DNA from: Bacteroidia bacterium | GTDB lineage: Bacteria > Bacteroidota > Bacteroidia > J057 | Direction: 5' to 3' | Assembly: GCA_041753595.1 (NCBI GenBank) | Contig: JBGSTW010000013.1 | Location: 1 to 64,000, forward strand | Length of the DNA: 64,000 nt | Part shown: piece by piece, positions 26,100 to 56,056 of the stretch | Layout of the letters: the number at the start of each line of letters is the position of its first letter | Numbering within the stretch: position 1 is the stretch's first letter | Notes under the pieces: generated by a model | The model's input: only the letters and a program-made list of their open reading frames with translations | The model's database searches: none | Told to the model about the DNA's origin: nothing | Program-made: the position numbers and the translations under genes

Positions 26100-26121
26100 G
26101 GCCAAAGGAAGTTTTCAGGGA

Positions 26122-28299
26122 TCAGGAAATGCCCGCCTGGTCGGCTGTTTTGTCGCTGATACCGAGAGATTCGACCACGCCCATGAGCTGCTGCAGCACC
26201 CCGCGCTGCGACTTATCGTTGGTCTGCGCCATCATTTTCAGGATCAGCGCCGACATCGAGAGGTTTTTGAGGTCGTCGGTCGATACCTTAAACTGGGCAA
26301 TAAACTCGCGCAATTTTCCCGTAAACTGGTTGTCGGAGCCGTCGCCAATCAGCTGGTTTTTGAGGCCATTGAGGGTGGAGCTGTGCTCAAAGAGGTTATC
26401 GACGTATTTGGCACTGACGACCGAACGGGTGATGCGGTCGAAGAACTCCTGCTCACCCCCGATGATGTCGATGTTGGCAGATTTGAGGGCTTCGGCGATG
26501 ACCATGGCCTGGGAAGCGGCCACGTCCTTCTGCACGTTGATGCGGGCGAGCTCGACCACTTTCTGCATGTCGAGGCGGAGCTTAAACTCCTCGTGGTCTT
26601 TGCCCACGCCGTCGAGCTGCTTCATGGCTTCGGCTTTGGCCTGTACGCCTTTGGCATCGGCTACGGCTTTGAGCTCGATAACGGTAGCTTCGCTGCGGCC
26701 CATTTTTTCTACGGCAGAGGCTTTCACTTCCGTTACTTCGGCTTCTACCTTGCCTTGTTCCGATTTCAGGGCGTTTTCGGTTTGTCCGAGGCGCTGGTTG
26801 GCATCGGCCTGGGCTTCGCCTTTGAGCTGTATGCCCTGGGCTTCGGCTTCGGCTTTCATGCGCAGCACATTGGCTTCCGCAAAACCTTCTTTTTCCTTGG
26901 CATGGGCCTTGGCTTCGAGCACGCGGGCTTCGGCTAGTCCGAGGGCGGCATGTTCTTCGGCCACGGCATCGGCCATTATTTTTTTGGCTTCGGCGTCCTT
27001 GTCCACGGCTTCGCGCTCGGCGGTAGCCACGATCAGGCGGGTTTGAGATTCGAGCTGGGCAGCTTCTTTTTGGGCTTCAGCGCCTTTTATTTTCACCACC
27101 AATTGCTCCTGAGCCTTTTGCTCGGCGGCGAGGATAGCTACCTTTTTGGAGCGCTCGGCCTCGGCAAAAGCAGAGGTATCTTTTATTTTTTCCTGCTCTT
27201 CTACCACGGCACGCTCCACCACCACGCGGTCGCGGATCACGTCCTGGATATTTTTCTTTTCCTCCTCCACGGCCTTTTCTTTGCCGATCTGCGCAATGGC
27301 CACGATGCGTTCGCGGTCGGTAGATTCGAGCTGGCGGTCGCGCTCCACTTTTTCGCTTTCTACGGCCAAGGTGCGCTCTTTGCTCTTCTGGGCCACGATC
27401 ACGTCGCGGGTTTTATTCTGCTCTTCGATGTCGATCTCCCGCTCGCGGGCGATGCGGGCGCGCTCGGATTTGGTCAGCTCTTCCTGCTGCACCCGCTTGA
27501 TTTCGGCTTCTTCGCGTGCTTTTACCGAGGCAACCTCCCGCTTCTGGATTTCTTCTTTTTCTGAAAGCTGGCGATTCAGCTCCAGAATGGCTTCCTGGGC
27601 TTCTACGTCCTGGCGCTTGATTTCCTTTTCCTTGTTGCGCTGAATTTTGTTGGCGAGGGTAATCTGGTGGCTGGTCAGCTCGCGGATTTTCTTGATACCC
27701 TCGGCGTCGAGGATGTTGTTTTCGTTGAGGAAGTCGATGGGGGTTTGCTCCAGGAAGTCGATGGCGCAGTCGTCGAGTACGTAGCCGTTGAGGTCGCGGC
27801 CGATGAGGTTCATGATTTCTTCGCGGAATTTTTCGCGGGCGTTGTACAGCTCCACAAAATCAAACTTCTTGCCCACGGTTTTGAGGGCTTCGGAGAACTT
27901 GGCTTCGAACAGGAGATTGAGCAGCTCGTGGTCGGAGGCACGGGCACAGCCGATGGTTTGGGCTACCTTCTTCACGTCGTCCACCGTGGGATTTACCCGC
28001 ACAAAAAATACCACCTTGATGTCGGCCCGGAGGTTGTCTTTACAAATAAGGCCCTCTTTGCCTTCGCGGGAAATCATCACCTGCTTCAGGGATATCTCCA
28101 TGGTTTCGGCATTGTGCAGGAGCGGGATGACCCACATACCTTCAAAAGCGACTCGGGTATTGCCGTAGCCGGTGCGCACCAGGGCTTTTCCCTGGGTTAC
28201 TTTTCGGTAAAAAAGGGAGATCAACGTCACGTAGCCAAAAATGGCCACCAGTACAATGACGCCGAAAATGATCCCAATGTTGAGTAGGAGGTTGTTCAT
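26122..28299 (-). CDS. flotillin-family SPFH/Band-7 protein (long form, 725 aa)
   Basis: N-terminal TM helix IGIIFGVIVLVAIFGYVTLI. The SPFH domain spans RTGYGNTRVAFEGMWVIPLLH...TQ. A long E/K/A-rich coiled-coil follows, then a flotillin C-terminal region. Confidence 0.9.
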   Translation of the reverse strand: MNNLLLNIGIIFGVIVLVAIFGYVTLISLFYRKVTQGKALVRTGYGNTRVAFEGMWVIPLLHNAETMEISLKQVMISREGKEGLICKDNLRADIKVVFFVRVNPTVDDVKKVAQTIGCARASDHELLNLLFEAKFSEALKTVGKKFDFVELYNAREKFREEIMNLIGRDLNGYVLDDCAIDFLEQTPIDFLNENNILDAEGIKKIRELTSHQITLANKIQRNKEKEIKRQDVEAQEAILELNRQLSEKEEIQKREVASVKAREEAEIKRVQQEELTKSERARIAREREIDIEEQNKTRDVIVAQKSKERTLAVESEKVERDRQLESTDRERIVAIAQIGKEKAVEEEKKNIQDVIRDRVVVERAVVEEQEKIKDTSAFAEAERSKKVAILAAEQKAQEQLVVKIKGAEAQKEAAQLESQTRLIVATAEREAVDKDAEAKKIMADAVAEEHAALGLAEARVLEAKAHAKEKEGFAEANVLRMKAEAEAQGIQLKGEAQADANQRLGQTENALKSEQGKVEAEVTEVKASAVEKMGRSEATVIELKAVADAKGVQAKAEAMKQLDGVGKDHEEFKLRLDMQKVVELARINVQKDVAASQAMVIAEALKSANIDIIGGEQEFFDRITRSVVSAKYVDNLFEHSSTLNGLKNQLIGDGSDNQFTGKLREFIAQFKVSTDDLKNLSMSALILKMMAQTNDKSQRGVLQQLMGVVESLGISDKTADQAGIS

Positions 28300-31914: not shown

Positions 31915-32934
31915 ATGACACTTCCTCTTACTCCCATCCGCAATGGTTTCCTCGCGACCTTGCTCTTTGCCACGGCTGGTCTTTGCCAAACACGTGCCTT
32001 TGGACAAAGCCAATTGACGGCCATTGAAACAACTGAAACTATGACCATCGATGGACTGGGAAATGAGGCGATCTGGTCGGCAGCCACCTGGTATCCGATT
32101 GATCAGACCTGGATCGGAACACCGCCCTCCTCAACAGATTTTTTGGGCAAATTCAAGGTTGTCTGGGATCAAAACTTCCTCTATGTGCTCACAGAAATCA
32201 CCGATGAAATATTGAGCGACGACCACCCCAATCCGCTAACCAATTGGTGGGACGACGACGGGATTGAGATCTTCCTCGACGAAAACTTCTCCAAAGGCAA
32301 TCATCAATTCAACTACAATGCCTTTGCCTATCACGTGAGCACGTTCTATGATGTGGTGGATCTCGGAACTGACCAAAATCCGCATTTATACAACGACCAT
32401 ATCACCACGGTCCTGAGCAATTCCGGGACGGTATATACCTGGGAGTGCAGGATAAAAATATTCAACGACCAATTTGTCTATGGTGGCAACAACACGCCGG
32501 TGTCTCTAAACGCAAATAAAATCATGGGCTTCTCCATGGCCTACAATGACAATGACGCCGGCACTTCGCGCGAAAACTTCATGGGTTCCGGAGTCGTGCC
32601 CGGCACAGATAAGAATGTTGGCTACCTCACGGCAGATTATTTTCAGCAACTGACGCTCGTGGCTTCCGGTGCGTCGTCCATCTCTCCCGAAAATGCTTTG
32701 GCATTGGGGGTAAAGGTCTATCCCAACCCCGCATCTGACCGATTCACCCTCGACCTCGAACATCCGCGTTGGGAGAACCTCGGGCTCTTTTCGATCACCG
32801 GAAAGCAGGTGCTGAACCAGGAAATTCGTGGCTTGCAACAAGTACAGGTGAATGTGGCCGATTTTCCGCCGGGGATCTACCTCTTGAAGGTGAGCGGCGC
32901 GCAGATCGCCACAACCAAATTGCAGATAAAATAG
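31915..32934 (+). CDS. CBM9-like carbohydrate-binding domain protein with T9SS C-terminal sorting domain
   Basis: Signal peptide. The CBM9/DOMON-like region is W/D-rich: NWWDDDGIEIFLDENF. The C-terminal sorting domain reads VKVYPNPASDRFTLDLEHP...GIYLLKVSGAQIATTKLQIK. Confidence 0.75.
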   Translation: MTLPLTPIRNGFLATLLFATAGLCQTRAFGQSQLTAIETTETMTIDGLGNEAIWSAATWYPIDQTWIGTPPSSTDFLGKFKVVWDQNFLYVLTEITDEILSDDHPNPLTNWWDDDGIEIFLDENFSKGNHQFNYNAFAYHVSTFYDVVDLGTDQNPHLYNDHITTVLSNSGTVYTWECRIKIFNDQFVYGGNNTPVSLNANKIMGFSMAYNDNDAGTSRENFMGSGVVPGTDKNVGYLTADYFQQLTLVASGASSISPENALALGVKVYPNPASDRFTLDLEHPRWENLGLFSITGKQVLNQEIRGLQQVQVNVADFPPGIYLLKVSGAQIATTKLQIK

Positions 32935-43251: not shown

Positions 43252-45951
43252 CTAGTTCTTCCTTATTTTTTGAAAATAAATTTTTCCCTGCGCATCCTGC
43301 ACCACCACCTGGTAAATGCCCGAAGCATAGCCCCGAAGGTCGAAAAAATGTAACGATTCCCCTTCGGTTACCTGCAGGCGTTGTCTGTCAACTACCCGCC
43401 CGGAGGGACCCAGCAACTGCCAGGTGAGCGTCTGTGCGGCCGGAGCGACAAACCACACGGAAATAAAATCATCGGCAGGCGACGGGTAGATCGGGCGCAT
43501 CACCAGCGAGGCGGAGGAGTCGCTTACCCCCGGAAAAAGCTGGCTTTGGGGTATCAATTCGCGTGAAAAACGCTCCCCACTCCACGAAAGCGCGATCTGC
43601 GCTCCGCCGATGTACTCAAAATACACCAGCCGGATGCTGTGCTTTTGGCCGCCTTCGAGGTGAATTTTTCCTTCGCGCTCCGTCGGGCGGTGGGGCGCCC
43701 AGTCGTCTATCACCAACTGGTCGTCGAGGTACAACTGGCAGCCGTCATCTGCGAGGGTATAAAAGGTTACCTCCTCCGATTCGTACGGCAGAATGCTACC
43801 TTCCCAAACCACCATGAATTCGTTGCCCGAGATTTGTATGGGATCCGGAGAGCTTTCACCCCAATCAAAGGAAATCTGAGAATCTATGCGCCGAAAAACA
43901 GGACCGGTATCCGGCAGCGGATTGTTCCAGTTATTGGAGTAATAGGAGCCCGTTAGGCCCGTTCCGTTGGCGTAGAGCAAGGGAGAATACCAGGCTTCCA
44001 CCTTCGACACGCCCCCGGGCAGCACATAGGTGCGCAGGGTTTCGCGACCCGCATTTTCCCAATTTCTGAAAATCAACCGCCCTTCGGGTTGCTCAACGGT
44101 GGCCACGGGTTCGATGGTCCGCTCCATGCCTTCCACCCCGGTTCCTTCCCACGGCGTAATCACATTGAGTCCGTCGATATTTACCGGAATACCGGTGGGA
44201 TTGGTTTCTACCCGAAAGGTGCTGATGCGGGGCTTGATGTCGAGGTAAGCCGTTTGCTTGAGTCCTTCGGGATCGGTGGCAGTGAGGGACACGAGGTACC
44301 ATACTTTTTCGGAAAGCTCCCCTACCCTTGGCACCACAAATGTACCCGATGAAATGCCGGAAACCGGCATCAGCCCCGGATGTGCATGCGCTTCGTGGTA
44401 AAAATCAATTTTCCAGGTAAGGGCCGAATCGGGCAAAGGGCCTGATTCGGGATCGGTGGCCGATCCTTCAAAATGCAGGGTATCGCCGCCGGCGTAGGTT
44501 GAAAATTCCAATGGCAGGGAGATTCGCGGTACCGGACGTCGGTTGGTCGTTACACTCAAAATAGCTGCCTGGCTGGTATCGGCTCCGAGGTCGTTCCACA
44601 CCCGGCAGCGCACAAGGCTGCCATCGTCTTCTATTCCCACCGCCGGAAAATCAAATGCCGGATGGGTCGCACCGGCAACTTCCAGCCCGTTTACTTCCCA
44701 CTGGTTCTGGAGCGGTGCAGCTCCCGATGCCTGAATAACAAAGCGGGTGGTTTCGCCGAGGGGAACCAGCACCGGTTGGGGCTGTACGGACACGTGCGGC
44801 GCGCCGGAGCCGGTATAGTTTATTTTCCACAAAGACCCTTCGTTGCTGCCGGTATTGTCCTGGTCAGAGCCATCTCCCAGTCCGCCTCTGGCGATGTAGT
44901 ACAGGCTGCCATCCGGGCCAGTGAGTAGCAACAATAAGCGGTTGATGCCTGTGGCAAATACCTTCACAAATTGCCCGTTATCGGGATTGAGCACCCGGAT
45001 AGAGCCGTTGCAGTAATCGCCAAAGAAGTATTTGCCCACATACTCCTGCGGAAACTGCCCCTGTGCGGGCTGATAGAAGCTACCTCCGACCACCGCGCAA
45101 CCCATAACATGCGAGTAGGTATAAAAGGGATCCTGGTAAGCCACGGGCATGGGTTGACTGGTACGCTTTCCTTCAATGTTCTGCCAGCCATAGTGGGCGC
45201 CGGGGAGAATTTCGTTTACTTCTTCCCAGTCTTCGCGGCCCACATCGTTTACAAAAAGACGGCCCGTAACCGGATCTTTAGTCATGGTAAAGGGGTTGCG
45301 CAGCCCGCGGGCATAGATCGCCCGGTATTTTCCGGTTGTCTGGGTGTAAAAGGGATTGTCCTCCGGAATGGTTCCATCGGGGTTGAGGCGAAGCACTTTG
45401 CCATGGGTTTTGACGAGGTCGCCTGCGTAAGCACCGTAGGCCCCATCACCGGTGGCTACATAGAGTTTGCCATCGTTGCCAAATTGCATAGCACCGCCGT
45501 TGTGGATGCCTGCCGCCAGTGGGTCCATTTCAAAAAGCACGGTTTCACTGCCCGGAATGGCCAGGTCGCCGTTTATCTGAAAGCGGGAAAGACGGTTGAA
45601 GTGGGCGTTATTCGGCACTGTGTAATACACGTACAAGTAGCCATTTTGCTCAAAGCTGGGGTCCAACACGATGCCTTCGAGGCCGCGCTCGTTGAAGTCG
45701 TCCACAGCGATGCTGAGCATGGGAATTGTAACCAGCGAGTCATTTCGAAAGATGCGGACTTTGCCATTTTTCTCTGCAATCAATATCCTGCCATCCGGAG
45801 CCATCACCATCGCTGTGGGATTGAGCCCTGAAGCGAGCCTCGTTTCCGAAAATCCACTAAGTAAGTCTGCAGCCAAGGTTTTGGAAGGAAAAAGAGGTTG
45901 TGCTACCCCTATAAGAAACAGGGTTGCTACTCGTAAACAGGTTGCTCTCAT
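43252..45951 (-). CDS. PQQ-dependent sugar (glucose/sorbosone) dehydrogenase beta-propeller fused to a PA14 domain and a T9SS C-terminal sorting domain
   Basis: Signal peptide. GSDH-like motifs GRILIAEKNGKVRIF ... GLRNPF. The PA14-like segment is GTGLTGSYYSNNW...FDWGESSP. The C-terminal domain is ...IYPSPADDFISVWF...GIYQVVVQDAQGKIYFQKIRKN. Confidence 0.85.
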   Translation of the reverse strand: MRATCLRVATLFLIGVAQPLFPSKTLAADLLSGFSETRLASGLNPTAMVMAPDGRILIAEKNGKVRIFRNDSLVTIPMLSIAVDDFNERGLEGIVLDPSFEQNGYLYVYYTVPNNAHFNRLSRFQINGDLAIPGSETVLFEMDPLAAGIHNGGAMQFGNDGKLYVATGDGAYGAYAGDLVKTHGKVLRLNPDGTIPEDNPFYTQTTGKYRAIYARGLRNPFTMTKDPVTGRLFVNDVGREDWEEVNEILPGAHYGWQNIEGKRTSQPMPVAYQDPFYTYSHVMGCAVVGGSFYQPAQGQFPQEYVGKYFFGDYCNGSIRVLNPDNGQFVKVFATGINRLLLLLTGPDGSLYYIARGGLGDGSDQDNTGSNEGSLWKINYTGSGAPHVSVQPQPVLVPLGETTRFVIQASGAAPLQNQWEVNGLEVAGATHPAFDFPAVGIEDDGSLVRCRVWNDLGADTSQAAILSVTTNRRPVPRISLPLEFSTYAGGDTLHFEGSATDPESGPLPDSALTWKIDFYHEAHAHPGLMPVSGISSGTFVVPRVGELSEKVWYLVSLTATDPEGLKQTAYLDIKPRISTFRVETNPTGIPVNIDGLNVITPWEGTGVEGMERTIEPVATVEQPEGRLIFRNWENAGRETLRTYVLPGGVSKVEAWYSPLLYANGTGLTGSYYSNNWNNPLPDTGPVFRRIDSQISFDWGESSPDPIQISGNEFMVVWEGSILPYESEEVTFYTLADDGCQLYLDDQLVIDDWAPHRPTEREGKIHLEGGQKHSIRLVYFEYIGGAQIALSWSGERFSRELIPQSQLFPGVSDSSASLVMRPIYPSPADDFISVWFVAPAAQTLTWQLLGPSGRVVDRQRLQVTEGESLHFFDLRGYASGIYQVVVQDAQGKIYFQKIRKN

Positions 45952-46064
45952 AAAAAAAAACTGCTAAAAGCTTGACCCCAAAAATACCGCGTTATTCTAA
46001 TTTTATTCTAATAAAAAACGCCTGCAAACACACGATTGATCACCTTTTGAAGTCTGAATCAGGC

Positions 46065-46110
46065 AAAAAACGAAAATACCCGAAGGACCTAACGGCCTCC
46101 GGGTAATTTT
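46065..46110 (-). terminator. putative rho-independent terminator after gene 46135..47646
   Basis: Stem cccgaagg / cctccggg with one mismatch and a 9-nt loop. It is flanked by an A-run on the plus strand (a T-run on the minus strand) and by a T-run downstream on the plus strand. Confidence 0.45.
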
Positions 46111-46134
46111 TATAAGTAAAAGCCATAAAACCGT

Positions 46135-47646
46135 TTATACCGCGGCGTAGGCTTTGCGCAGGTCGTCGAGGCGGGAAAGGTGCAGGTCGGCTTCTTTGTG
46201 CAAATGGGGGTCTTCCACAAGTTGCTTCACTTCCAGCGACTTGGCTACCATGTCGAGGTAGCGGCCTTCGTTGAATTCGTCCACCTCCTGCTGCACATAC
46301 CAGCTAGCCTCTACGTGGTTGAGCAGGGTAAGGGCCCTTTCGAGCGGAAACCTGCCGGGCGTGCGTATTTCGAGGGCTTCCTGGTAGTAATGCAGGGCCT
46401 TCTTATGGTTATCTGAATGAACGGCAGCCGGGTATTTCGTCAGGGCATTGCCGAAGCTATTGCAGACCAGGGCGTATTCGTAGGGGTAATTTTCTTTGTC
46501 AAAAATGGTCAGGGCTTCGGTGAAAGCCGCTGAGGATACCGCCGCCCAAACACTCTTTTTCTTTACCTCATCGGGTATTTCGGAGTAAATGACCCCGAGC
46601 ATGTGCTGGATTTCGGCAAAAACTTCGGGCGTTTGATCACGCGAGAACACCTTCAAGGCTTGCTGAAAAGCGTCTATTGCCGGACGGAAAAACTGCGCCT
46701 GGCCTTTTTTGGCCCAGGTGTAGAGCAGGGTACCTTTCCGGAACTGGGCATTGGCCAGCAGCTCACCGAGGCCCTCGTTGCCAAAAATTTCAATCGCCTG
46801 GTTCACGTAACCCAGCGACTCGGCAAAGCTTTCGGCATAGTTGGCGATCTGGGCAGCATCTACGAGCAGCAGACCGCGCTCCGCTTCGCGGTGATAGGTT
46901 TCCAGGTGCCCGAGCACTTCCCACAGGGTTTGTTTCAGTTCGGCCAGGAGCGCCTGGTCATAGGGCACCGCCAGTTTATTCATCCACACGGCACACAAGC
47001 CCTGCTTCAGTTCCATTTTCACCTGATCGTGAGGGGCATATTGCAACGCGCCCAGCAGGAGGTCCTCGGCATGGGCCACATGGCCTACATCCGATAGAAA
47101 AACGGCGTATTGCTTGGCGGAAAATGCTTTCCAGGCATCATCGGGCGCAGCTACCATGGCTTCGTGGTAGAAGTAGCGCACTTTTTCTCCGTCGAAATTG
47201 GCTTCCTCTGCCGCATAGTGCCGCACCACAGCCTGGTTGTGCATCAGGCGGTATTCTTCAAACTCCGAATACTCACTCGCCAATTCGTCGGGGTTGACCG
47301 GCATGCCGATGCGGATGCGGTCCATTACCTCCATTTCCTGGAGGAGGGCAGGGTCACCGGCGAGCCATTCCCAGGCTTTTTCGTTGTTTCCCAAAAAGAA
47401 AAAAACCAACCCCAGCAGCACCTCTGGTTTCGCTGGCAGGTATTCGGGCAAAATATAGGGGGTATGCCTGTTTTTCCAGTCGATTGACAAGGCTATTCCT
47501 TTCTTTTCAAAACGGAAATCGGGATCATCGCCAGCCACGAGGGCGGCTTCGTCCTTTACCGATACCAGTTCATTGAGGCGGTGTTCGCGGGCGATCCAGC
47601 TGTGGATGGTTTCATGATGATCGGCCGGTGCAACGATAAGCAGCAT
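46135..47646 (-). CDS. hypothetical protein (503 aa, helical) encoded in the [NiFe]-hydrogenase cluster
   Basis: No catalytic motif is recognised. It sits 36 bp downstream of the preceding gene and is co-directional with it. Confidence 0.55.
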   Translation of the reverse strand: MLLIVAPADHHETIHSWIAREHRLNELVSVKDEAALVAGDDPDFRFEKKGIALSIDWKNRHTPYILPEYLPAKPEVLLGLVFFFLGNNEKAWEWLAGDPALLQEMEVMDRIRIGMPVNPDELASEYSEFEEYRLMHNQAVVRHYAAEEANFDGEKVRYFYHEAMVAAPDDAWKAFSAKQYAVFLSDVGHVAHAEDLLLGALQYAPHDQVKMELKQGLCAVWMNKLAVPYDQALLAELKQTLWEVLGHLETYHREAERGLLLVDAAQIANYAESFAESLGYVNQAIEIFGNEGLGELLANAQFRKGTLLYTWAKKGQAQFFRPAIDAFQQALKVFSRDQTPEVFAEIQHMLGVIYSEIPDEVKKKSVWAAVSSAAFTEALTIFDKENYPYEYALVCNSFGNALTKYPAAVHSDNHKKALHYYQEALEIRTPGRFPLERALTLLNHVEASWYVQQEVDEFNEGRYLDMVAKSLEVKQLVEDPHLHKEADLHLSRLDDLRKAYAAV

Positions 47647-47682
47647 AAACGTAGAAGTTAAGGCGGGTTTCAGGAGAAAAAT

Positions 47683-48051
47683 TTACCAGGAAATTTCCAG
47701 GGTATGGGTGCCTTCGGGGCAATGATAGCTCAGTACCCGATCGGTGTCGTCAAGGCCCTGGTCGAGCAGTACATCGTGCAGGGCTACGGAACGGTCGCCG
47801 TGCGGATTGCGGGTTTTGAGCATGTGAAGGGCTGTTTTGTGCGCATCGCGAAAGGCCATATCGTCCATCCGGGCCAGGCGCAGCACTTTGAGCGCTTCGT
47901 CAAAAGCCGTTAATACCTGCTGGATATCTCCAAAAAGAGGTGTTGCTACCTCAGCTGCAATCAACAGGTGTTGCTGCCGGAGGCTTACGGGGTGGGTGGC
48001 GGGTTGCGGTGCCGAAGGTTGCGGGTTGCCTACACGGATCGTTTTTTCCAT
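47683..48051 (-). CDS. hypothetical protein (122 aa) encoded in the [NiFe]-hydrogenase cluster
   Basis: Start is an ATG. It lies 36 bp downstream of the maturation protease gene. Confidence 0.5.
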   Translation of the reverse strand: MEKTIRVGNPQPSAPQPATHPVSLRQQHLLIAAEVATPLFGDIQQVLTAFDEALKVLRLARMDDMAFRDAHKTALHMLKTRNPHGDRSVALHDVLLDQGLDDTDRVLSYHCPEGTHTLEISW

Positions 48052-48087
48052 AACATATGCCTTTTTTGATAAGGTAAGATACAGCTA

Positions 48088-48579
48088 TCAGGCGGGAGTG
48101 GAGTGACCCGGTTGGGCTATTTCCTCCAAAATAAGCGCGGCTACCCGCCCGGCTGCCTCGGATACGACTTCCGAAAGCCCTACTTCCAGCCGGGTATTGG
48201 TGATGGAAATAAGGTAAACCGATACATCCTTGGGGTAATCGTTTTGCAGAATTTTGCGGGCGTAGGACAATGCCTGGTCCCACTTCAGGGAGTGAAGAAA
48301 AACCATGGGATCGTCCTGGATAGATGCTTCCACGGCTTCGGCAGGCAGTCGGTAAAGGGTGCCGTCGGGTTCGCCTGAATTTATCACGCCATCTACCAGC
48401 AGGATACGGGTATGGCCTTTTAGCTGAAACAATACCTCAAAAGCCGAGGTACCCATGTCGATCAAAGACACATGCTCGTGCTCACCCATCTGTGCCTGGA
48501 GCAGCTCAATGACCCTACAGCCTACCCCGTCGTCGCTGCGAACCGGGTTACCAAAACCCAAAATGGCTGTTTTTCCCAT
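48088..48579 (-). CDS. hydrogenase maturation protease (HyaD/HybD/HupD family, large-subunit C-terminal peptidase)
   Basis: N-terminal motif ILGFGNPVRSDDGVGCRV, matching GNP...DDG. The cluster context also supports the call. Confidence 0.85.
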   Translation of the reverse strand: MGKTAILGFGNPVRSDDGVGCRVIELLQAQMGEHEHVSLIDMGTSAFEVLFQLKGHTRILLVDGVINSGEPDGTLYRLPAEAVEASIQDDPMVFLHSLKWDQALSYARKILQNDYPKDVSVYLISITNTRLEVGLSEVVSEAAGRVAALILEEIAQPGHSTPA

Positions 48580-48639
48580 GATGCTGAAAAAAAGTCCGCC
48601 TCCCGAACAGGAGGCGGATGAAATAAAAACCTTAAGGGT

Positions 48640-50232
48640 TCAAAGTTTGAAACGGGAGATTTCCTCGCCCGATTTGCCGTCGTGGGCATGCACGGTACAA
48701 ACGAGGCAGGAGTCAAATGACCTTGCCACCATGCCAACCTCCACCGGATCGTGTGGATCCTCGATTTCGGTGCCTTCGAGGGCAGCTTCAATCGGGCCGG
48801 AGTTGCCGGCTTCATCGTTAGGGCCTACATTCCAGGTAGTAGGAGCGACTACCTGGTAATTTTTGATCACGCCATTTTCGATTTCAATCCAGTGAGCGAG
48901 TGCCCCGCGGGCAGCTTCGGTGGCTCCCCATCCCTGGCCGTCTCTTTCTTCAGGCTTGATATAAAATTCGTCGTCGAGGCGAACCTGACCCAGCCAGTCG
49001 TTGATGAAGGTGTAGAGGCGCGGGGCTTCGTGCATACGTGCCAGAGCGCGGGTAAACACGCTGGGGCCTTTTTTGTCCATGATATCGAGGAACAAAGGAT
49101 CCTGGATCTGATGGGAAAGGTTGGCCGGGTTGGCGTTCATGATTACCCGTGAAAGCGGCCCGGCTTCGGCGGCATAGCCCAGGTAGCGGGGGGCTTTTGA
49201 CCAGGAGTATTTTCCGTTAAAATCTGTTTCGTTGAGGTTTTGAGAAGCCAACGGGGTTGGAAGAGGTTCTGACCAGGGATGAGCAGCGTTCACATCGGCG
49301 TACCAGGAGTGCTTTACGTGCTCGGTAATGTCGAGGTGATTGAGGTTAATGAACTCCTTGCCATCCCAGAAACCGCCGGGGCTGATAACGGCTGACTGGC
49401 GCGATTCCACGGTGGGGTGGTTGTAGAGGTCTTTGTGCAGGTAGGTACCGTAAGCCACAAATTTACCTACTCCCTGGCCGAAGGTATCGAGGCCAAACTC
49501 GAGGCTGGCGCGGATAAACAGGCCGAGGTCAGAGTTGCGCTGCGATTCGTTTTCGTCCACCCACTCCAGCATGTCTTCCCATGACTTGATCTGCATGTAC
49601 CGGTCGATGGAGCAGCCGAGCCAAACGGATTCGAGCCAATCGTTGCGGAAGTGGTTCATGATGGCCGTGGCGCGGGTAATATCCTTGAGGGTCGGTGCGC
49701 ACATCACGCCTCCGGGTACCATGTAGGATGAGTGCGGCCACTGGCCGCCAAACAAAGCATATACCTCCACCGGACGACCCGAGGCGGTTACCCCGCGCTG
49801 AAAGGAGGTACCCACGTAGGCCGAAAAGCGGCGCACCACTTCGTCGTAGAGGGGTTTGTTGGCAAATTTTTTATTCGCCATGTCGGTGGCGAAGATGGCA
49901 TAAAACCAGCGGGGAATACTCTGGATCGTTTCTGTTGCCTGTCCAATGGCGCGGAGCAGCAGGGCATTGGGCGGAAGGGTTGTTTTCCAGGCCGTATCGA
50001 GGGCCGAAGAGGCGCAGTACAGGTGTGAGCCTCCACAGATCCCGCAGATACGCGGGGTAACAATCAGCCCCGACTGGGGGTCTTTACCGGCCATGATTTG
50101 CTCAAAACCACGAAACATCGCGGCTTGGGTGTGAGCACGGGTCACTACCCCGTTTTCCATATATACTTTCACATCCAGGTCGCCTTCTACACGACCAACG
50201 GGTGAAATATTTAGCTCTTTATAGGCTGACAT
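48640..50232 (-). CDS. [NiFe]-hydrogenase large subunit
   Basis: N-terminal NiFe-binding motif RICGICGGSH. C-terminal motif DSCLVCTVH, followed by a short extension that is the substrate of the adjacent protease. Confidence 0.9.
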   Translation of the reverse strand: MSAYKELNISPVGRVEGDLDVKVYMENGVVTRAHTQAAMFRGFEQIMAGKDPQSGLIVTPRICGICGGSHLYCASSALDTAWKTTLPPNALLLRAIGQATETIQSIPRWFYAIFATDMANKKFANKPLYDEVVRRFSAYVGTSFQRGVTASGRPVEVYALFGGQWPHSSYMVPGGVMCAPTLKDITRATAIMNHFRNDWLESVWLGCSIDRYMQIKSWEDMLEWVDENESQRNSDLGLFIRASLEFGLDTFGQGVGKFVAYGTYLHKDLYNHPTVESRQSAVISPGGFWDGKEFINLNHLDITEHVKHSWYADVNAAHPWSEPLPTPLASQNLNETDFNGKYSWSKAPRYLGYAAEAGPLSRVIMNANPANLSHQIQDPLFLDIMDKKGPSVFTRALARMHEAPRLYTFINDWLGQVRLDDEFYIKPEERDGQGWGATEAARGALAHWIEIENGVIKNYQVVAPTTWNVGPNDEAGNSGPIEAALEGTEIEDPHDPVEVGMVARSFDSCLVCTVHAHDGKSGEEISRFKL

Positions 50233-50258
50233 AGTAATTGCTGTTGAAAAGGGGAAGG

Positions 50259-51240
50259 TTATTTGGAGGTCTCGAAGTGTTCTTTGTTGGCGCCAGCGAT
50301 TTTCTCTACTGTGCCGAGCACTTTCTCAAAGCCCGCACGGGTGTAGTAGCCAAGGCGGGTATTGCCGGTGGGTACATCTTTTGGCAGGAATCCGAGATAT
50401 TTCAGCGACTTGAATACGCTCCCTTTCACGAGGTCGTGGTGGGGGAAGCCCGGCTCTGTACAACCCAGGCAAGGGTGATTGGCGCGGGTTTTGGACGACT
50501 GGCGGTTCCAGAGAATACGGTTACAACTGGCGCGCGTCATGGGTCCACGACACCCTACTTCGTAAAAGAGGCATCCGCCACGCTTGCCAAAATGTCCGTC
50601 CACTTTTTCGGCAAAGCTGATGGCATTGGGGCAGCCGGTTTGCACGAAGTCGGTAAAGAAGGTTTTTGGTCGGTGGAAAGAATCGAGGAGCACATCTCCT
50701 ACCCTGCCCGTGGCAATGGCTACCAGAATCTGGGTAATCCAGTCGGGGTGTGCCGGGCAACCGGGTATATTGATTACGGGCAAGCCGCCTTTGGATACAT
50801 AATTTTCACCCAAAAATCCCCCCTTCTTGTCCTTATGAAACTGCATACCGGTTGACTCGCTTGGGTTTGGCGGAACGGCCGGAATGCCCCCCCCAGGTAG
50901 CGCAGTCGCCGATAGCCACCACAAAAGCAGCTTTTTTCGACAACTCCTGCACCCAGTCCTTCATGGGGCGGTCGCAGAAATAGTTCATCGTTCCGGTGCC
51001 GTGTGGCCCGTTAATGATAGAGCCCTCGTACACCAGGATATCCAGCTGGACCTTTTCCTTTTTGATGTCCTCCATAAGGTCGGCTACCTGATGGCCAATC
51101 TCAAGACCAATAGAGGGATGCCATAAAATATTGACACCGAAATCGGTGACCAATTCTACAACCGTAGGCTCTTCTGCATTGAGGAACGACATGGTATTCC
51201 CGCTGCATGCACCGCCTTGAAGCCAAAGCACATTTGCCAT
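50259..51240 (-). pseudogene. [NiFe]-hydrogenase small subunit lacking a Tat signal and interrupted by a +1 frameshift in a G8 homopolymer (C8 on the plus strand, ~50887-50894)
   Basis: The N-terminal ORF 50833..51240 reads MANVLWLQGGACSGNTMSF ... AIGDCATWGG. The C-terminal ORF 50259..50924 reads IPAVPPNPSESTG...INIPGCPAHPDW...CLGCTEPGFP. Removing one G joins them as ...DCATWGGIPAVPPNP.... Confidence 0.8.
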
Positions 51241-51382
51241 TTGATAAGGGTTGGGGTTGTGAAAAATAGCTACTGACGTATCTAATTAGCCAGTTAGGTA
51301 AATATATAGGTTTTTATTTATCCTGGAAATTATTTTCTAAATATTCTAGAAAAAAATATCTAATCCTAATATTCGGAGCAAT

Positions 51383-52015
51383 TTACATGGGCAGTCCATC
51401 GGGGTAAGTCTGCACTTCCAGCACATATATTTCCTGTCCTTTGGGGGTAAGCAGGGGCAGCAACTGCTCCCACACCTGGTCGCGGAAATTTACCGGTAAA
51501 TGGGCCGTACCCTTCAATAGCTGCTGATGCTGGAAGAAAATGGCCTGCAACCAGAGGTTATGGCTCAGGGTATCGAACATGCCCGGATAGGCCTCGCCTT
51601 TCAGCAAGCCTTTCTGCACGAAAAAATCGAGGCGGTAGCGGAGTTGGGTAGAAAATTTTTTAAAATAACTCTGTAACCGGGATTCTTTTTCGGGGAAAGC
51701 GCGGATGACTTCGGGGATATCGAGGAGGAAAAACCGATACTGCTGAAAAAACTGCTGCAGGCGGCTCAGCTGCAAGTCAAGGTCCATGAGGTTGGGATAC
51801 ACGAGGTATTCGCCCAGGATTGCCGCAAATTCGTCCTGTATAATATCGAGCACACCGGCCACGATCGCTTCTTTGTTGGTGTAATGGTAGGCGAGATTGC
51901 CCACACTGATACCCGACTCATCGGCAATTTGCTGGAGGCGCACATTGGCTATCCCCCGGTCATTAAATAAACGGATAGCAGATTCAAGGATGCGATTTTT
52001 GGTCGTTACAGACAT
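51383..52015 (-). CDS. TetR/AcrR-family transcriptional regulator
   Basis: HTH motif ILESAIRLFNDRGIANVRLQQIADESGISVGNLAYHY. Confidence 0.85.
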   Translation of the reverse strand: MSVTTKNRILESAIRLFNDRGIANVRLQQIADESGISVGNLAYHYTNKEAIVAGVLDIIQDEFAAILGEYLVYPNLMDLDLQLSRLQQFFQQYRFFLLDIPEVIRAFPEKESRLQSYFKKFSTQLRYRLDFFVQKGLLKGEAYPGMFDTLSHNLWLQAIFFQHQQLLKGTAHLPVNFRDQVWEQLLPLLTPKGQEIYVLEVQTYPDGLPM

Positions 52016-52054
52016 TTCGACAAAAAAGTAGGGTAAAGGAATGAAATACGAGGC

Positions 52055-52414
52055 TCAGTTAGGCTCAGAAAGCAACTGGTCGGGGTCGATGCACAGGGTA
52101 CCGCGCTGGTCCTTGGCGGCAAGCCTGCGCATGAGGCTGGCAGTGAGGTCGGCTTTGCGTTTGCAGGAAAAGGAAATTATCCGCCTTCTTAGAAATTGCA
52201 TGGGCCGTTGATAATGGGCAAATACCAGCGATATTTCCCACTCTCCACGCACCCTGCGCAGAGATTCAATCACCGCAGAGTCTGTAAGCCAAACCCCATC
52301 CTGCAGGAAACCGAGGTCTCGCTCCTGACCAACCACGTCCAGTATGTGCAGGCCGTGGAGGGCATACAGCATTTGCTGGTAAACACGTTCGTCGATGTGG
52401 AATGAATGGGGCAT
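52055..52414 (-). CDS. hypothetical protein (119 aa) between two TetR genes
   Basis: ATG start. It is co-directional with its neighbours and spaced 13 bp and 39 bp from them. Confidence 0.45.
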   Translation of the reverse strand: MPHSFHIDERVYQQMLYALHGLHILDVVGQERDLGFLQDGVWLTDSAVIESLRRVRGEWEISLVFAHYQRPMQFLRRRIISFSCKRKADLTASLMRRLAAKDQRGTLCIDPDQLLSEPN

Positions 52415-52428
52415 AATCGGGTTTTAAT

Positions 52429-53085
52429 TTAGAAATATTTTCCTAAAATTAAAGCATTCAATTGTGAGAATTCTGACCAGCCCATGTCGGAAAAGCAAGT
52501 GGACAGCAGCATCCAGGGAGATTTGCGGAAGGCTTCGAAATCATCGGCAGGGGATTGTAGTAAGCGTTGGCGGTATTGCCAGCTTTCGAGCTGATTCCAG
52601 CATATTTCGGCCAAAGCCTGGTGCTGCCCGGGCGAATATTCGGGGATAAACGCCCCACGCGATACATTGAACTGAAACATCATGCCTACCTGGGCAATCT
52701 GATTGAGTCGGTTTTCGCGGTGTGCGGCTGCAATCTGGGGGTAGCTGCGGAGTATCTCGAGGGTATCCTGGTAAAAAAAAGGATAGGCTTGCTGCAAAGC
52801 AAAATAAGACCGGAACATGCGCTCGATGTCTTCGAACAAGGGCAGTACCCGAAATTCGGCCATGAGGGTATGTTGCGCTTCGAGGATACGCGCCCAGATC
52901 GCCTCTACTATCAGCTCTTTGGTGCGGAAGTGGTAGGCCATATTGCCCAGGCTCATGCCCGCTTCGTCGGCAATCTGCTGCAACCGGGTATTGGACACCC
53001 CCGTGTGGTTGAAACACCGGACAGCCGCCTCCAGGATGCGCTGCTTCGTAATCCAACTTCCGGCCTGGTTTGCCCGCGTATTCAT
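52429..53085 (-). CDS. TetR/AcrR-family transcriptional regulator (paralogue)
   Basis: HTH motif ILEAAVRCFNHTGVSNTRLQQIADEAGMSLGNMAYHF. Confidence 0.85.
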   Translation of the reverse strand: MNTRANQAGSWITKQRILEAAVRCFNHTGVSNTRLQQIADEAGMSLGNMAYHFRTKELIVEAIWARILEAQHTLMAEFRVLPLFEDIERMFRSYFALQQAYPFFYQDTLEILRSYPQIAAAHRENRLNQIAQVGMMFQFNVSRGAFIPEYSPGQHQALAEICWNQLESWQYRQRLLQSPADDFEAFRKSPWMLLSTCFSDMGWSEFSQLNALILGKYF

Positions 53086-53241
53086 GTCCGAAGGTACGGA
53101 CCACCGCTATTTTTTCGAAACACCGATTTTCACCTGTGCACTACACCCCTTTTAAGGACCCGCTTTCTAGGTCATAAGCACGATACAGCGCGCATGGGTT
53201 TTTCATTTATCTTCGGGAAAACAACCCCAATCCCCACACCT

Positions 53242-53613
53242 ATGATCTGGCTGCAAAAAATCCTCATTGCCCTGGTGGCCCTGGAGCACCTGTATATCCT
53301 CTGGCTCGAAATGTTTGCCTGGACCACCCGCGGCCCGAAAATTTTTCCTTTGCCTAAGGACCTTTTTGAAAAGACCAAAACCATGGCCGCCAACCAGGGC
53401 CTGTACAATGGTTTTCTGGCTGCCGGGCTCATCTGGTCGCTGCTGAACCAGGATCCGCATTTCAGCTTTCACATCGCCATATTTTTCCTGGGCTGCGTGA
53501 TTGTGGCCGGGGTCTATGGCGGCATTACCGTGAGCCGCAGGATTTTGTATGTGCAGGCCCTTCCGGCGCTTATTGCCCTGGTGGTGCTGCATCTGCCCAA
53601 TGGCCTCCTCTGA
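53242..53613 (+). CDS. DUF1304-like small membrane protein
   Basis: ATG at 53242. The ORF track extends further upstream, antisense to the TetR gene. About 124 aa, with 3-4 TM helices: MIWLQKILIALVALEHLYILWLE... Confidence 0.65.
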   Translation: MIWLQKILIALVALEHLYILWLEMFAWTTRGPKIFPLPKDLFEKTKTMAANQGLYNGFLAAGLIWSLLNQDPHFSFHIAIFFLGCVIVAGVYGGITVSRRILYVQALPALIALVVLHLPNGLL

Positions 53614-53644
53614 TTTTTCTGAAATACCCCTTTCATTTTCCCCG

Positions 53645-56056
53645 ATGAAACTCTCCTTTCTTACTGCCTCCCTGGCAATTGTCCTTCTGTGCGGCTGCGA
53701 AAAGACCGGGCCCGTTGTTTCCCTGCTATCGAAGCTCGATCCTGCACAGGGCCTTTCCGGCCAGGCTGCCTACCTGGCTTCGCCTTTTGCTGCCGCAGGT
53801 GACCGCCTGTACCTCATTGGCAATCAGGACGGCTCTTTCCCCGATCTGGGTTGGCACGTTACCGGCGAAATGGGCGGCATCTGGGACCACCCCATCAAGC
53901 TCATGGACGGCTTTTCGGCGGCGGTGGTGATGGGTGGCGATACCCTTTGCCTCAATCAGGCGAAGGAATTTGTCAATTACCCCATGGCCAACCAACACCG
54001 TTATTCCTTTCTGGAAAAAAAGCTGGAAGTGGAGCGCGTACAATTTGTGCCGGATGGAAAGGAAGCCGTGATCGTGGAGTTTACCGTTTGGAACGGAAAT
54101 GAACAGCCGCAATCGCTCGATTTTATTTTTGAAGGGATGACCGACCTGAGCCCTGTATGGCTGGGGGAAAGAACGGGCATGACCGACGCCCCCGACTCGG
54201 TGTATTGGCAGGAAAAAACCGGCACCTGGGTCGGGAAAGACACCCAAAACCCCTGGTTCGTCAGCTGGGGAGCAAATCTACCCGCTGCCTCACACACCGC
54301 GCCGGGCACCATTTGCCCTTATCCCCACGCGGGAAAAGGCACCTCGGCACAAACGGTTTACTCCCTGAAGGTAGAGGCGGGAAAATCGGCGGTTTTACGC
54401 TTTTGCATAGCTGGATCGTGGAAATCTGAGGCACTGGCCGCGGCTACCCAGCAGACATGTTTGCAGGATGCCCTCGTTCTATTTGACCAAAAACAACAGC
54501 GCTACGCCACCCTCGCCGCCACCGGCAAGGTAACGGTGCCCGACAGCGCCCTGAACCTCGCCCTGGAGTGGTCGCGCTACAATACCGACTGGCTCATCCG
54601 CGATGTGGAAGGAACGGGCCGCGGCCTTTCGGCGGGTCTGCCCGATTATCCGTGGTGGTTTGGCTGCGACAACGAATACGCCCTGCGGGGGGTGTTGGCT
54701 TCGGGCCGGAGCGACATCGTGCTGGCTACCCTCGATCTACTGCGAAAGCTCTCTGAAAAAGAAAACGGCAATGGCCGCATCGTACACGAAGTTTCGACCA
54801 ACGGCTCGGTGTTTAACCCCGGCAACCTGAACGAAACCCCGCAATTTGCCCCGCTGGTGTGGGCGGCCTATTGCTGGACCGGCGACCGGAAAATGCTGGA
54901 AGCGAATTTTCCTATTGTACAAAAAGGCCTTGTATGGCTCATGAAAAACCACGACCCCGATGGCAACGGCGTGCCTGACGGCTTCGGCATGATGGAAATT
55001 CACGGGCTGAACTCCGAAATGATCGACGTGGCCTCCTATACCTGGCAGGCCTACGAAGCAGCCGCCCACATGGCCGATGAGCTGGGCGAAAAGTCCCTGG
55101 CCGCTGACTACCGCAACCGCGCCGACAAGCTCGCCCAAACCATCAACAGTGCTTTTTGGGCCGAAAAATTCGATTCCTACGCCGACTTTATGGGCACGGC
55201 GGCCCAGGCCCAAACCCTGATCGAAGACGCCATTGTGCGGGCAGATACCCTCAAGAAGCCGTGGGCCGTAGCCGAACTCCGCCAAACCCTCGGTGCCGTT
55301 TCGGCTTTGCCCAAGGACAAGCGCCAGGCCTTTGTGGTGCACCACAACTGGGTGGTGAATACGCCCATGGAAGTCGGGGTGGCCGATTCGGCGAAAGCCC
55401 TTCGCGCCCTTGCTACCGGCAGCCAGTTTGTAAACCCCTTCGGCATGTTTGTTACGGGCATCGACCGCGACGAAACAGCGGGCAACGATGTAGGCTCCTT
55501 CGCCTCCACTAAAAAAATATTCTCCTACGTGGGCGCGGTCATGACGCTGCCTACGGGTGTGCAGGCTATTGCCGAAAACAACTACGGCCGGCCCGACGCG
55601 GCCCTTGGCTATTTGCAGCGCATGGTGCGGTCGTTTGGCTATGCGCTGCCCGGCTCCATGTACGAGGTTTCGCCCGATTTTGGCATGATGACCCAGGCTT
55701 GGACCGTTTACAGCCTGTATCATCCCGTAGTGGGGCAGTTTTTTGGCGTCGAGCCTTTCGCCTTCCGGAAGCAGATTGAGCTTCATCCGCAAATGCCGAC
55801 TACGTGGAATGAGGCATCCATTGAGGCTTTGCCCGTGGGCGACAATGCCGTTTCGGTCCATTATGAGAGAACCCCGAAAGGAATCGCGCTGGAGGTAAGC
55901 CAGCAATTGGCCGATTGGGAGCTGGTGATTCAGTTTCCGAAGGGAAAATACCGGAGTTGGAAAGTGGACGGAAAAACGGTTGCGCCCACCTCCTCCGGCA
56001 ACATGGACCAGGTGGTAATCAGGGCGCTGGCGGCCAGGATTGAGGTTGGGGTGTAG
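53645..56056 (+). CDS. six-hairpin (alpha/alpha)6 glycoside-hydrolase-like lipoprotein (glycogen-debranching/GH63-GH15-like fold)
   Basis: ATG at 53645. Lipoprotein signal MKLSFLTASLAIVLLCGC. Central region DYPWWFGCDNEYALRGV...GNGRIVHEVSTNG...DPDGNGVPDGFGMMEIHG. Confidence 0.65.
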   Translation: MKLSFLTASLAIVLLCGCEKTGPVVSLLSKLDPAQGLSGQAAYLASPFAAAGDRLYLIGNQDGSFPDLGWHVTGEMGGIWDHPIKLMDGFSAAVVMGGDTLCLNQAKEFVNYPMANQHRYSFLEKKLEVERVQFVPDGKEAVIVEFTVWNGNEQPQSLDFIFEGMTDLSPVWLGERTGMTDAPDSVYWQEKTGTWVGKDTQNPWFVSWGANLPAASHTAPGTICPYPHAGKGTSAQTVYSLKVEAGKSAVLRFCIAGSWKSEALAAATQQTCLQDALVLFDQKQQRYATLAATGKVTVPDSALNLALEWSRYNTDWLIRDVEGTGRGLSAGLPDYPWWFGCDNEYALRGVLASGRSDIVLATLDLLRKLSEKENGNGRIVHEVSTNGSVFNPGNLNETPQFAPLVWAAYCWTGDRKMLEANFPIVQKGLVWLMKNHDPDGNGVPDGFGMMEIHGLNSEMIDVASYTWQAYEAAAHMADELGEKSLAADYRNRADKLAQTINSAFWAEKFDSYADFMGTAAQAQTLIEDAIVRADTLKKPWAVAELRQTLGAVSALPKDKRQAFVVHHNWVVNTPMEVGVADSAKALRALATGSQFVNPFGMFVTGIDRDETAGNDVGSFASTKKIFSYVGAVMTLPTGVQAIAENNYGRPDAALGYLQRMVRSFGYALPGSMYEVSPDFGMMTQAWTVYSLYHPVVGQFFGVEPFAFRKQIELHPQMPTTWNEASIEALPVGDNAVSVHYERTPKGIALEVSQQLADWELVIQFPKGKYRSWKVDGKTVAPTSSGNMDQVVIRALAARIEVGV

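Follow-up and report, generated by a model that had tools for sequence, protein, structure and literature searches.

A group 2a (Huc-type) [NiFe] hydrogenase cluster of the Bacteroidota clade with a frameshifted small-subunit gene

Introduction

What kind of hydrogenase is encoded by a cluster whose small subunit lacks an export signal and the usual proximal-cluster motif, and could that cluster work as it was sequenced? The question is raised by a 64,000-nucleotide stretch of DNA from a Bacteroidia bacterium (positions 1 to 64,000 of contig JBGSTW010000013.1, assembly GCA_041753595.1; here called the window), in which a list of open reading frames (ORFs) places a [NiFe] hydrogenase cluster of five co-directional genes on the minus strand at 46135-51240. 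An earlier note on this DNA had read these genes as a small subunit, a large subunit, a C-terminal protease and two further proteins of 122 and 503 residues, and all five are where it put them. What it observed is partly confirmed and what it made of the observations is partly supported. We find an ordinary group 2a cluster of a known clade, and the oddities that bear on its function here are a frameshift in the small-subunit gene, hucS, and the lack of neighbouring hyp genes.

Results

The large subunit, HucL, carries the NiFe-binding CxxC motifs RICGICGGSH and DSCLVCTVH, and in a search of solved structures its residues 6-515 matched the Huc hydrogenase of Mycobacterium smegmatis (7UUS/7UTD) with an E value of 5e-199, as against 5e-59 for the next class, the periplasmic group 1 enzymes. 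The small subunit, HucS, once its reading frame is repaired as described below, matched its Huc counterpart (7UUR/7UTD) at 4e-134 in the same kind of search, with GGACSGNTMSFLNA identical. Matches on plasmids split just as cleanly, into group 2a proteins at 53-82% identity and HupU-like and other hydrogenases at 33-37%. HucL also has a 15-residue C-terminal extension after His515, the residue aligned with the last one of the HucL chain as solved. The NiFe motifs, a small subunit without a twin-arginine (Tat) leader, the Cys/Asn/Gln pattern of its cluster ligands and a C-terminal extension with its own endopeptidase are thus all present, and because of the gap in match scores the group 2a assignment is safe.

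The label "group 1h/2a-like" given in the earlier note kept group 1h open, and both group 1h and group 2b hydrogenases also lack Tat leaders. However, the group 1h structure 5AA5 matched HucL only at 5e-34 (over a fragment) and the small subunit at 1e-27, HupU-annotated matches are only 33-37% identical, and the window has both the HucL extension and a dedicated endopeptidase, which sensor hydrogenases lack; neither the closest similarity expected of group 1h nor the missing extension expected of group 2b was found, and it is exceedingly improbable that the enzyme belongs to the high-affinity group 1h (Hhy-type) or is an H2 sensor of group 2b. The 2a half of that label therefore stands and the 1h half falls: judged by its sequences, the enzyme is no sensor but a [NiFe] uptake hydrogenase of group 2a (Huc-type) from the Bacteroidota clade.

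A scan of species-representative genomes returned 80 related loci, all from Bacteroidota and with HucL 81-89% identical, in Saprospiraceae, Chitinophagales, Cytophagales (among them Runella, Emticicia, Cecembia and Algoriphagus) and Haliscomenobacter. The closest relatives are metagenome-assembled genomes (MAGs) of Saprospiraceae, and the window cluster probably comes from that family. A Saprospiraceae member, Phaeodactylibacter xiamenensis, was classed as group 2a by HydDB in 2016 (PMC5037454), and Islam et al. described a Bacteroidota-associated group 2a radiation of 34 genomes in 2020 (PMC7784904). As a separate observation, group 2a clusters lie on plasmids in at least 17 records (H1-H17) from five phyla, their hosts being Runella, Hymenobacter, Mycobacterium, Sphingopyxis, Novosphingobium, Sulfobacillus, Thermus, Bradyrhizobium, Mesorhizobium, Octadecabacter and Roseovarius, which suggests frequent horizontal transfer.

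hucS begins at MANVLWLQGGACSGNTMSF. Because the ORF finder gave no start codon between the preceding stop and that ATG, the earliest possible start is the Met of MANVLWLQGG and a Tat leader is impossible, as the earlier note had proposed in calling the small subunit cytoplasmic. Listed homologues are 303-327 residues long, and those that were read start at the same conserved core. The replacement of the expected ECTCCSES motif by GACSGNTMS, also pointed out in that note, is real and no artefact of alignment: the window's GGACSGNTMSF is identical to that of M. smegmatis HucS, where Asn stands for the second Cys of the proximal cluster. Since the residues concerned are invariant across the aligned copies, the motif reads not as a degenerate ECTCC but as a hallmark of the 2a (cyanobacterial/Huc) type. 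The window protein conserves C12, C113, C161, C203, C223, C230, C239, C257 and C260 together with N15 and Q200; these nine Cys, Asn15 and Gln200, with Lys212, Tyr226 and Tyr298, are invariant among the window, 72 Bacteroidota copies and those of Mycobacterium, Sphingopyxis, Thermus and Runella. HucS is thus predicted to hold three clusters with three Cys ligands each, with Asn and Gln at two fourth-ligand positions. In Huc, all three clusters of the small subunit are [3Fe-4S], which raises the potential of the enzyme and makes the oxidation of atmospheric H2 favourable, and menaquinone is bound beside the distal cluster through Lys212, Tyr229 and Tyr301 (PMC10017518). We took the roles of the ligand and quinone-site residues from that study; in window numbering, the counterparts of the last three are Lys212, Tyr226 and Tyr298.

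The earlier note had treated the small subunit as a single intact gene and overlooked that hucS is split by one extra G. Frame 1 stops after 135 codons at 50833 and the remainder lies in another frame (50259-50924), the break being in a run of eight Gs (G8); removal of one G gives a continuous HucS of 326 residues. hucL is intact. Relatives encode the Trp-Gly-Gly triplet at this point as TGG GGN GGN, and of 82 copies scored, 74 interrupt the run with GGC, GGT or GGA and so have only four Gs, five, among them the closest relative L002, show a run of seven that stays in frame (G7) and none has G8. This makes the lesion an insertion of one base into a homopolymer, as opposed to a conserved recoding site. 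The repaired HucS aligns end to end with its relatives at 87-90% identity, with every ligand kept, and deviations at near-invariant columns number one of 174 in hucS and none in hucL (322 columns), the protease (43) or p503 (51). A Logan contig of run SRR28170466 has G8 too; over 2528 bp it shows 100% identity to the window and may therefore rest on the same reads. In exact-protein look-ups, hucS-N, p503, TetR210 and p122 were not on record; HucL alone was matched, on a Logan contig of 2.5 kb that does not differ from the window and so does not represent an independent strain. A metagenome scan for G7 and G8 alleles with this strain's flanks gave no match.

Two further observations concern hucS in other lineages. 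It is also split at other places, around residues 184, 131-142 and 270 (P0322+P0324, in the cluster of P0001; L023:8985-9961; L044:6569-7545), once on up to five contigs and twice in low-coverage MAGs (L023 and L044), and these could be recurrent errors or recurrent inactivation. Seven Bacteroidota relatives (L020, L037, L039, L043, L045, L050 and L057) carry two tandem full-length hucS paralogues, the extra copy lying ∼1.0-1.4 kb upstream of the main one; the paralogues are 70-78% and 83-86% identical to the window protein, and both retain all cluster ligands and the quinone-site tyrosines. The window has a single copy.

The proteins of 122 and 503 residues (p122 and p503) had been left as uncharacterised, with no recognisable motifs. 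This held for p122 as far as Pfam is concerned and failed for p503, which is a tetratricopeptide repeat (TPR) superhelix; and neither is an orphan, as homology searches show both to be conserved group 2a accessory genes in five phyla. Full-length homologues of p503 occur in at least 439 protein clusters, and all those with an organism name are from Bacteroidota. Over the C-terminal 170-200 residues, p503 matches a gene, annotated as TPR or hypothetical, that comes after the protease gene in the group 2a clusters of Sphingopyxis, Novosphingobium, Bradyrhizobium, Mesorhizobium, Octadecabacter, Roseovarius and Thermus (E 1e-11 to 1e-19; 1e-13 to 1e-19 by tblastn), and these homologues adjoin hucL on plasmids of Sphingopyxis, Thermus, Bradyrhizobium, Mesorhizobium and others. 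The Mycobacterium homologue is linked through the Runella and Thermus proteins, with no direct match to the window, and the Sulfobacillus TPR gene at the same position is recognised by annotation only. A model of p503, with a predicted local distance difference test (pLDDT) score of 92, has a small N-terminal alpha/beta domain and a superhelix of ∼21 helices that superposes on peptide-binding TPR superhelices, for example those of OGT and LGN. Sequence searches of the PDB with p122 and p503 found nothing meaningful.

A word-index homology search with p122 returned only the protein itself, and an exhaustive search returned 80 family representatives, two of them HycI+p122 fusions. By hhalign, p122 matched its homologues in Mycobacterium, Thermus, Sphingopyxis, Bradyrhizobium and Sulfobacillus at 95.4% (E 1.7e-8), with the common motif LK.RN..GDRSV. 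These homologues are ∼100-residue genes after the protease in Sphingopyxis and Bradyrhizobium, an unannotated ORF in Thermus and the N-terminal half of a Sulfobacillus protein; in mycobacteria, residues 1-230 of a 257-residue protease align across the window's protease and p122 genes. A single-sequence AlphaFold model of p122 reached a pLDDT of 46 and was not used. The third small protein, p119, is homologous to an 85-residue mycobacterial protein encoded between protease and TPR gene (hhalign 95.7%, E 9.4e-9) and weakly matches the C-terminal half of the Sulfobacillus protein. It lies between the TetR genes in 59 loci; 16 have a second copy between p122 and p503, which we take for its ancestral place. 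Either small protein as a diverged HucM was ruled out by hhalign probabilities of at most 0.6%.

The endopeptidase gene is kept in 78 of 81 loci, and p122 and p119 are tied to it by gene fusions, of protease with p122 in actinobacteria and of p122 with p119 in Sulfobacillus. The window thus has the accessory set of Huc clusters, made up of a small domain linked to the protease, another small protein and a TPR protein, and by sequence p122, p119 and p503 appear to form a module specific to group 2a. Most likely this module would hold or present the HucL or HucS precursor during maturation and assembly.

Upstream of hucS the earlier note had overlooked a conserved arrangement, TetR-p119-TetR-hucS, which recurs in ∼66 of 80 loci. 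The window holds four copies of the palindrome TTAGAAAAnnTTTTCTAA (51346-51363, 51323-51340, 51648-51665 and 52429-52446) where 0.21 would be expected by chance. Of 73 relatives, 66 have the palindrome 60-170 nt upstream of the hucS ATG and 45 have it twice there; 67 of 74 upstream regions contain the 8-mer TTAGAAAA. A nearby element, TATATTTA, resembles TAnnTTTG, which we take to be the consensus of the Bacteroidetes -7 promoter element, and may serve as the promoter; a sigma-70 promoter scan, which was not built for this type of organism, gave sites no more numerous than in shuffled sequence. The two TetR paralogues would thus most likely repress hucSL through the paired putative operators before a Bacteroidetes-type promoter. 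A strong hairpin between hucL and the protease gene is predicted to act as a terminator. An Rfam search of 45000-54000 found no RNA family. The features are collected in Table 1.

Table 1. Features of the hydrogenase locus, in window positions.
Feature	Position	Strand	Remarks
p503, TPR protein of group 2a clusters	46135..47646	-	503 aa; TPR matches sub-threshold
p122 accessory protein	47683..48051	-	122 aa; no Pfam match
HycI/HupD-family maturation endopeptidase	48088..48579	-	163 aa; PF01750, E 7e-14
Terminator-like hairpin between hucL and protease gene	48595..48618	-	10 bp stem, 7 GC pairs, T7 tail
hucL, catalytic large subunit	48640..50232	-	530 aa; PF00374
hucS, group 2a small subunit	50259..51240	-	PF01058 + PF14720; two frames, 326 aa if repaired
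hucS frame 1 ORF	51240-50833	-	135 codons; PF01058
hucS frame 2 ORF	50924-50259	-	End of PF01058, and PF14720
G8 homopolymer, break point	50887..50894 (50894-50887 on minus)	-	TGG GGG GG[G] C; Trp-Gly-Gly codons
TATATTTA, -7-like promoter element	51299..51306	-	Relatives have TATATTTG at the same place; TAnnTTT(G/A)
Two tandem palindromic operator-like sites	51323..51363	-	Consensus TTAGAAAAnnTTTTCTAA, 3 mismatches each; 83-123 nt upstream of hucS ATG
TetR-family regulator directly upstream of hucS	51383..52015	-	210 aa; PF00440 + PF13972; synteny conserved
p119, small conserved protein between the two TetR genes	52055..52414	-	Synteny, hhalign
Second TetR-family regulator	52429..53085	-	218 aa

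The window shares with the Bacteroidota clade, which includes plasmid pRUNSL01 of Runella slithyformis, the order TetR-p119-TetR-hucS-hucL-protease-p122-TPR, the operator motif and the absence of HucM and HucE. Unlike its relatives it has the G8 frameshift, and it is also without the second p119 copy; most relatives, unlike the window, have an adjoining hypA and often hypB, hypF, hypC, hypD and hypE, an NHL protein, a nickel transporter and a bifunctional-nuclease (BFN)-domain protein. With M. smegmatis Huc (7UTD, 7UUR and 7UUS; Grinter et al. 2023, PMC10017518) it shares full-length alignment of both subunits, the Tat-less start, identical GGACSGNTMSFLNA, the nine Cys with the Asn/Gln pattern, the Lys and two Tyr of the menaquinone site, and a large-subunit extension with its dedicated protease, and the related cluster of M. 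intracellulare likewise has the protease-linked p122 domain, a p119-like protein and a TPR protein. The window differs from Mycobacterium in having no adjacent hyp genes, a p122 gene that is separate from and not fused to the protease gene, a TPR protein with ∼80 extra residues of which only the C-terminal part aligns, and two TetR genes in place of an AraC-type neighbour. It also lacks HucM, the stalk subunit that forms the oligomer scaffold and quinone conduit of M. smegmatis Huc, and HucE, a NifU-family iron-sulfur protein required for H2 oxidation in that species.

The plasmid cluster of Sphingopyxis alaskensis RB2256 (L083), which consumes H2 to sub-atmospheric levels (PMC10305171), has HucL 55% and HucS 66% identical to those of the window and the same succession of protease, ∼100-residue p122 homologue and TPR-like protein, again with no DUF1641 protein. 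Unlike the window it also has HucE, an NHL protein, hypFCDE, two small glycine-zipper membrane proteins and a sigma-54 regulator, and its TPR protein, of 332 residues, is without the N-terminal half of p503. The group 2a prototype, cyanobacterial HupSL, belongs to the same subgroup and is Tat-less too, with Asn and Gln substitutions at cluster-ligand positions. Its role is to recycle the H2 made by nitrogenase, and no nif genes lie in the window.

Elsewhere in the window, two neighbouring genes at 21261-28299 (minus strand) encode a 1614-residue protein with DUF3686 ("ATPase involved in DNA repair"), DUF7902 and AAA domains and a 725-residue protein of flotillin-like look and with no Pfam match, in which a hydrophobic segment at the N terminus is accompanied by a long helical region rich in Glu, Lys and Ala; this gene pair accounts for an AT skew of -0.33 at 26-28 kb. 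The gene directly after the TPR gene (43252-45951, minus strand) encodes a secreted GSDH/PQQ-type sugar dehydrogenase with a PA14 domain and a sorting tail of the type IX secretion system (T9SS). A protein of this type also follows the TPR gene on the Runella plasmid (L082:16469-19060) and is absent from the other 80 loci; with 25% identity between the two, we treat the adjacency as probable coincidence. The T9SS C-terminal sorting domain (PF18962) is found in an S8 peptidase, a CBM9 protein and the GSDH/PA14 protein (9203-12184, 31915-32934 and 43252-45951), which fits a Bacteroidota origin.

Discussion

We hold with good confidence that the locus encodes the subunits and accessory proteins of a Huc-type (group 2a) hydrogenase from the Bacteroidota clade, under putative TetR regulation, and that, the frameshift aside, it shows no decay. 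By analogy with the solved Huc, HucL would bind the NiFe centre and the cluster's own HycI-type endopeptidase would remove its 15-residue C-terminal tail; HucS would stay in the cytoplasm and hold three clusters with three Cys ligands each, which in Huc are three high-potential [3Fe-4S] clusters; and electrons from H2 would pass to menaquinone beside the distal cluster, where Lys212, Tyr226 and Tyr298 are conserved, and from there into the aerobic respiratory chain.

Several points weigh against this reading, the plainest being that hucS as sequenced cannot yield a full small subunit and that the second assembly has G8 as well. No intact hucS more than 90% identical was found by protein look-ups, homologue listing or the metagenome scan. 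A further point is the absence of hyp genes. In 51 of 68 relatives hypA (PF01155) directly follows the TPR gene, starting 2-240 nt downstream, and hypC, hypD, hypE and the NHL protein are each found no more than 10 kb away in 47-51 of 80 loci; within the same distance there are hypF in ∼41-43, hypB in ∼36 and a NicO-like nickel transporter in ∼21-23. What comes after the TPR gene in the window is a spacer of 183 bp and then the gene for the secreted GSDH/PA14 protein. Pfam searches of most ORFs of at least 150 residues, a motif scan, tblastn with queries from four phyla (Hyp, NiCoT, NHL, HucE and HucM proteins), and hidden Markov models (HMMs) of HucM and HucE found no hypA-F, nickel transporter, NHL, HucE or HucM gene in the 64 kb, in agreement with the earlier note as regards hyp and nickel transporter genes; a HypC-like MCVGIP at 13288-13305 was rejected as a chance match in an alternative frame inside a 999-residue ORF. 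That note had overlooked how atypical this is for the clade. The absence is not decisive, because hyp genes are dispersed in some relatives: the Runella plasmid has only hypCDE nearby, and L019, L023 and L045 have none within ∼10 kb. Also conserved in the hydrogenase/hyp neighbourhood of Bacteroidota are a protein with the PF02577 bifunctional-nuclease domain and a protein of ∼72 residues with no Pfam match (L002:14726-15628, minus strand; L082:8291-9107; ∼30 other loci), and the window has neither.

Also weighing against it, neither tblastn nor HMMs found HucM (DUF1641) or HucE in the window or in any of the 82 Bacteroidota loci. For HucM, the best E value in this set was above 1 with an HMM trained on three DUF1641 proteins, which themselves score 1e-72 or better; the HucE HMM likewise gave nothing better than 1, tblastn found HucE in none of 80 loci and not in the window, and the PGAP annotation of the Runella plasmid region has no DUF1641 protein. 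In Mycobacterium, Thermus and Sulfobacillus both genes flank or follow hucSL, and HucE is found in Sphingopyxis and Bradyrhizobium as well. Nor does any protein of the window cluster have a transmembrane-like segment, the top 19-residue Kyte-Doolittle mean being 1.54. Thus HucS has its menaquinone site, while neither HucM, HucE nor an adjacent hypABCDEF set is there, and because HucM and HucE are absent the quinone delivery of M. smegmatis is not simply transferable. Finally, the role of p122, p119 and p503 is read from synteny and fusions, and in the literature searched we found no H2 oxidation by a Bacteroidota group 2a enzyme, which in 2020 was stated to be unreported for this radiation (PMC7784904).

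As a side observation, Proteobacterial group 2a clusters have no DUF1641 protein and carry, after the TPR gene, glycine-rich two-helix membrane proteins of ∼70 residues (L083:14286-14731, L087:13312-13521), which could be an alternative membrane link. A doubtful but wider proposal is that Bacteroidota group 2a enzymes keep the quinone pocket with no HucM, HucE or membrane protein and would need an undescribed route for menaquinone, with p122, p119 and the TPR protein as a universal maturation and assembly module of group 2a and, less likely still, an on/off switch between G7 and G8.

What, then, is the extra G? Because nothing else has decayed, it is most likely either an error made in sequencing the homopolymer or a mutation that arose very recently, and the hyp genes would lie in another part of the genome. 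We give an even chance to a homopolymer-length error of sequencing or assembly, in which case the real gene would have G7 and the cluster would be fully functional. The lesion is exactly one base within an eight-base homopolymer; L002 and four other relatives have the in-frame TGG GGG GGC at the same codons; the repaired protein is complete and there are no further signs of decay; and two MAGs of 2-3x coverage (L023 and L044) show similar single frameshifts at other sites. However, the contig built independently from the Sequence Read Archive run has the same G8.

That agreement speaks instead for a freshly inactivated or decaying cluster, in which a real mutation would truncate HucS after residue 117, the hyp genes would have been lost from their usual place and no enzyme would be made. 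The 64 kb free of hyp, NHL and nickel-transporter genes, when relatives so often have an adjacent hypA, and the split hucS genes of other lineages point the same way. On the other hand, the remaining ORFs are all intact, with zero or one deviation at near-invariant columns, the two assemblies possibly come from the same reads and hyp genes lie away from the cluster in some relatives, so we regard inactivation as rather unlikely. Runs of seven or eight Gs are prone to slippage, and the window and five relatives have G7 or G8 at this codon triplet; but a functional switch, by slipped-strand phase variation or by transcriptional or ribosomal slippage restoring the frame, is very improbable, as most copies interrupt the tract with synonymous codons, no Rfam element lies nearby, no stimulatory structure was seen (although no search was aimed at one) and no G7 allele of this strain was found.

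Group 2a hydrogenases give aerobic bacteria energy from trace H2, are insensitive to O2 and form part of the biological sink for atmospheric hydrogen. The copy in the window adds little to their catalogue, as the Bacteroidota clade is already listed and a Saprospiraceae example already classified, and because its small subunit is broken as sequenced and maturation genes are missing nearby, the genome should be counted as that of an H2 oxidiser only after a check of the reads and of the rest of the genome. What it brings out is of wider bearing. A whole Bacteroidota clade is without HucM and HucE, both of them central to the only system that has been solved and genetically studied. Two hypothetical genes, with a third upstream, appear to make up a cross-phylum accessory module tied to the maturation protease, and the conserved pair of putative TetR operators offers a testable candidate regulator.

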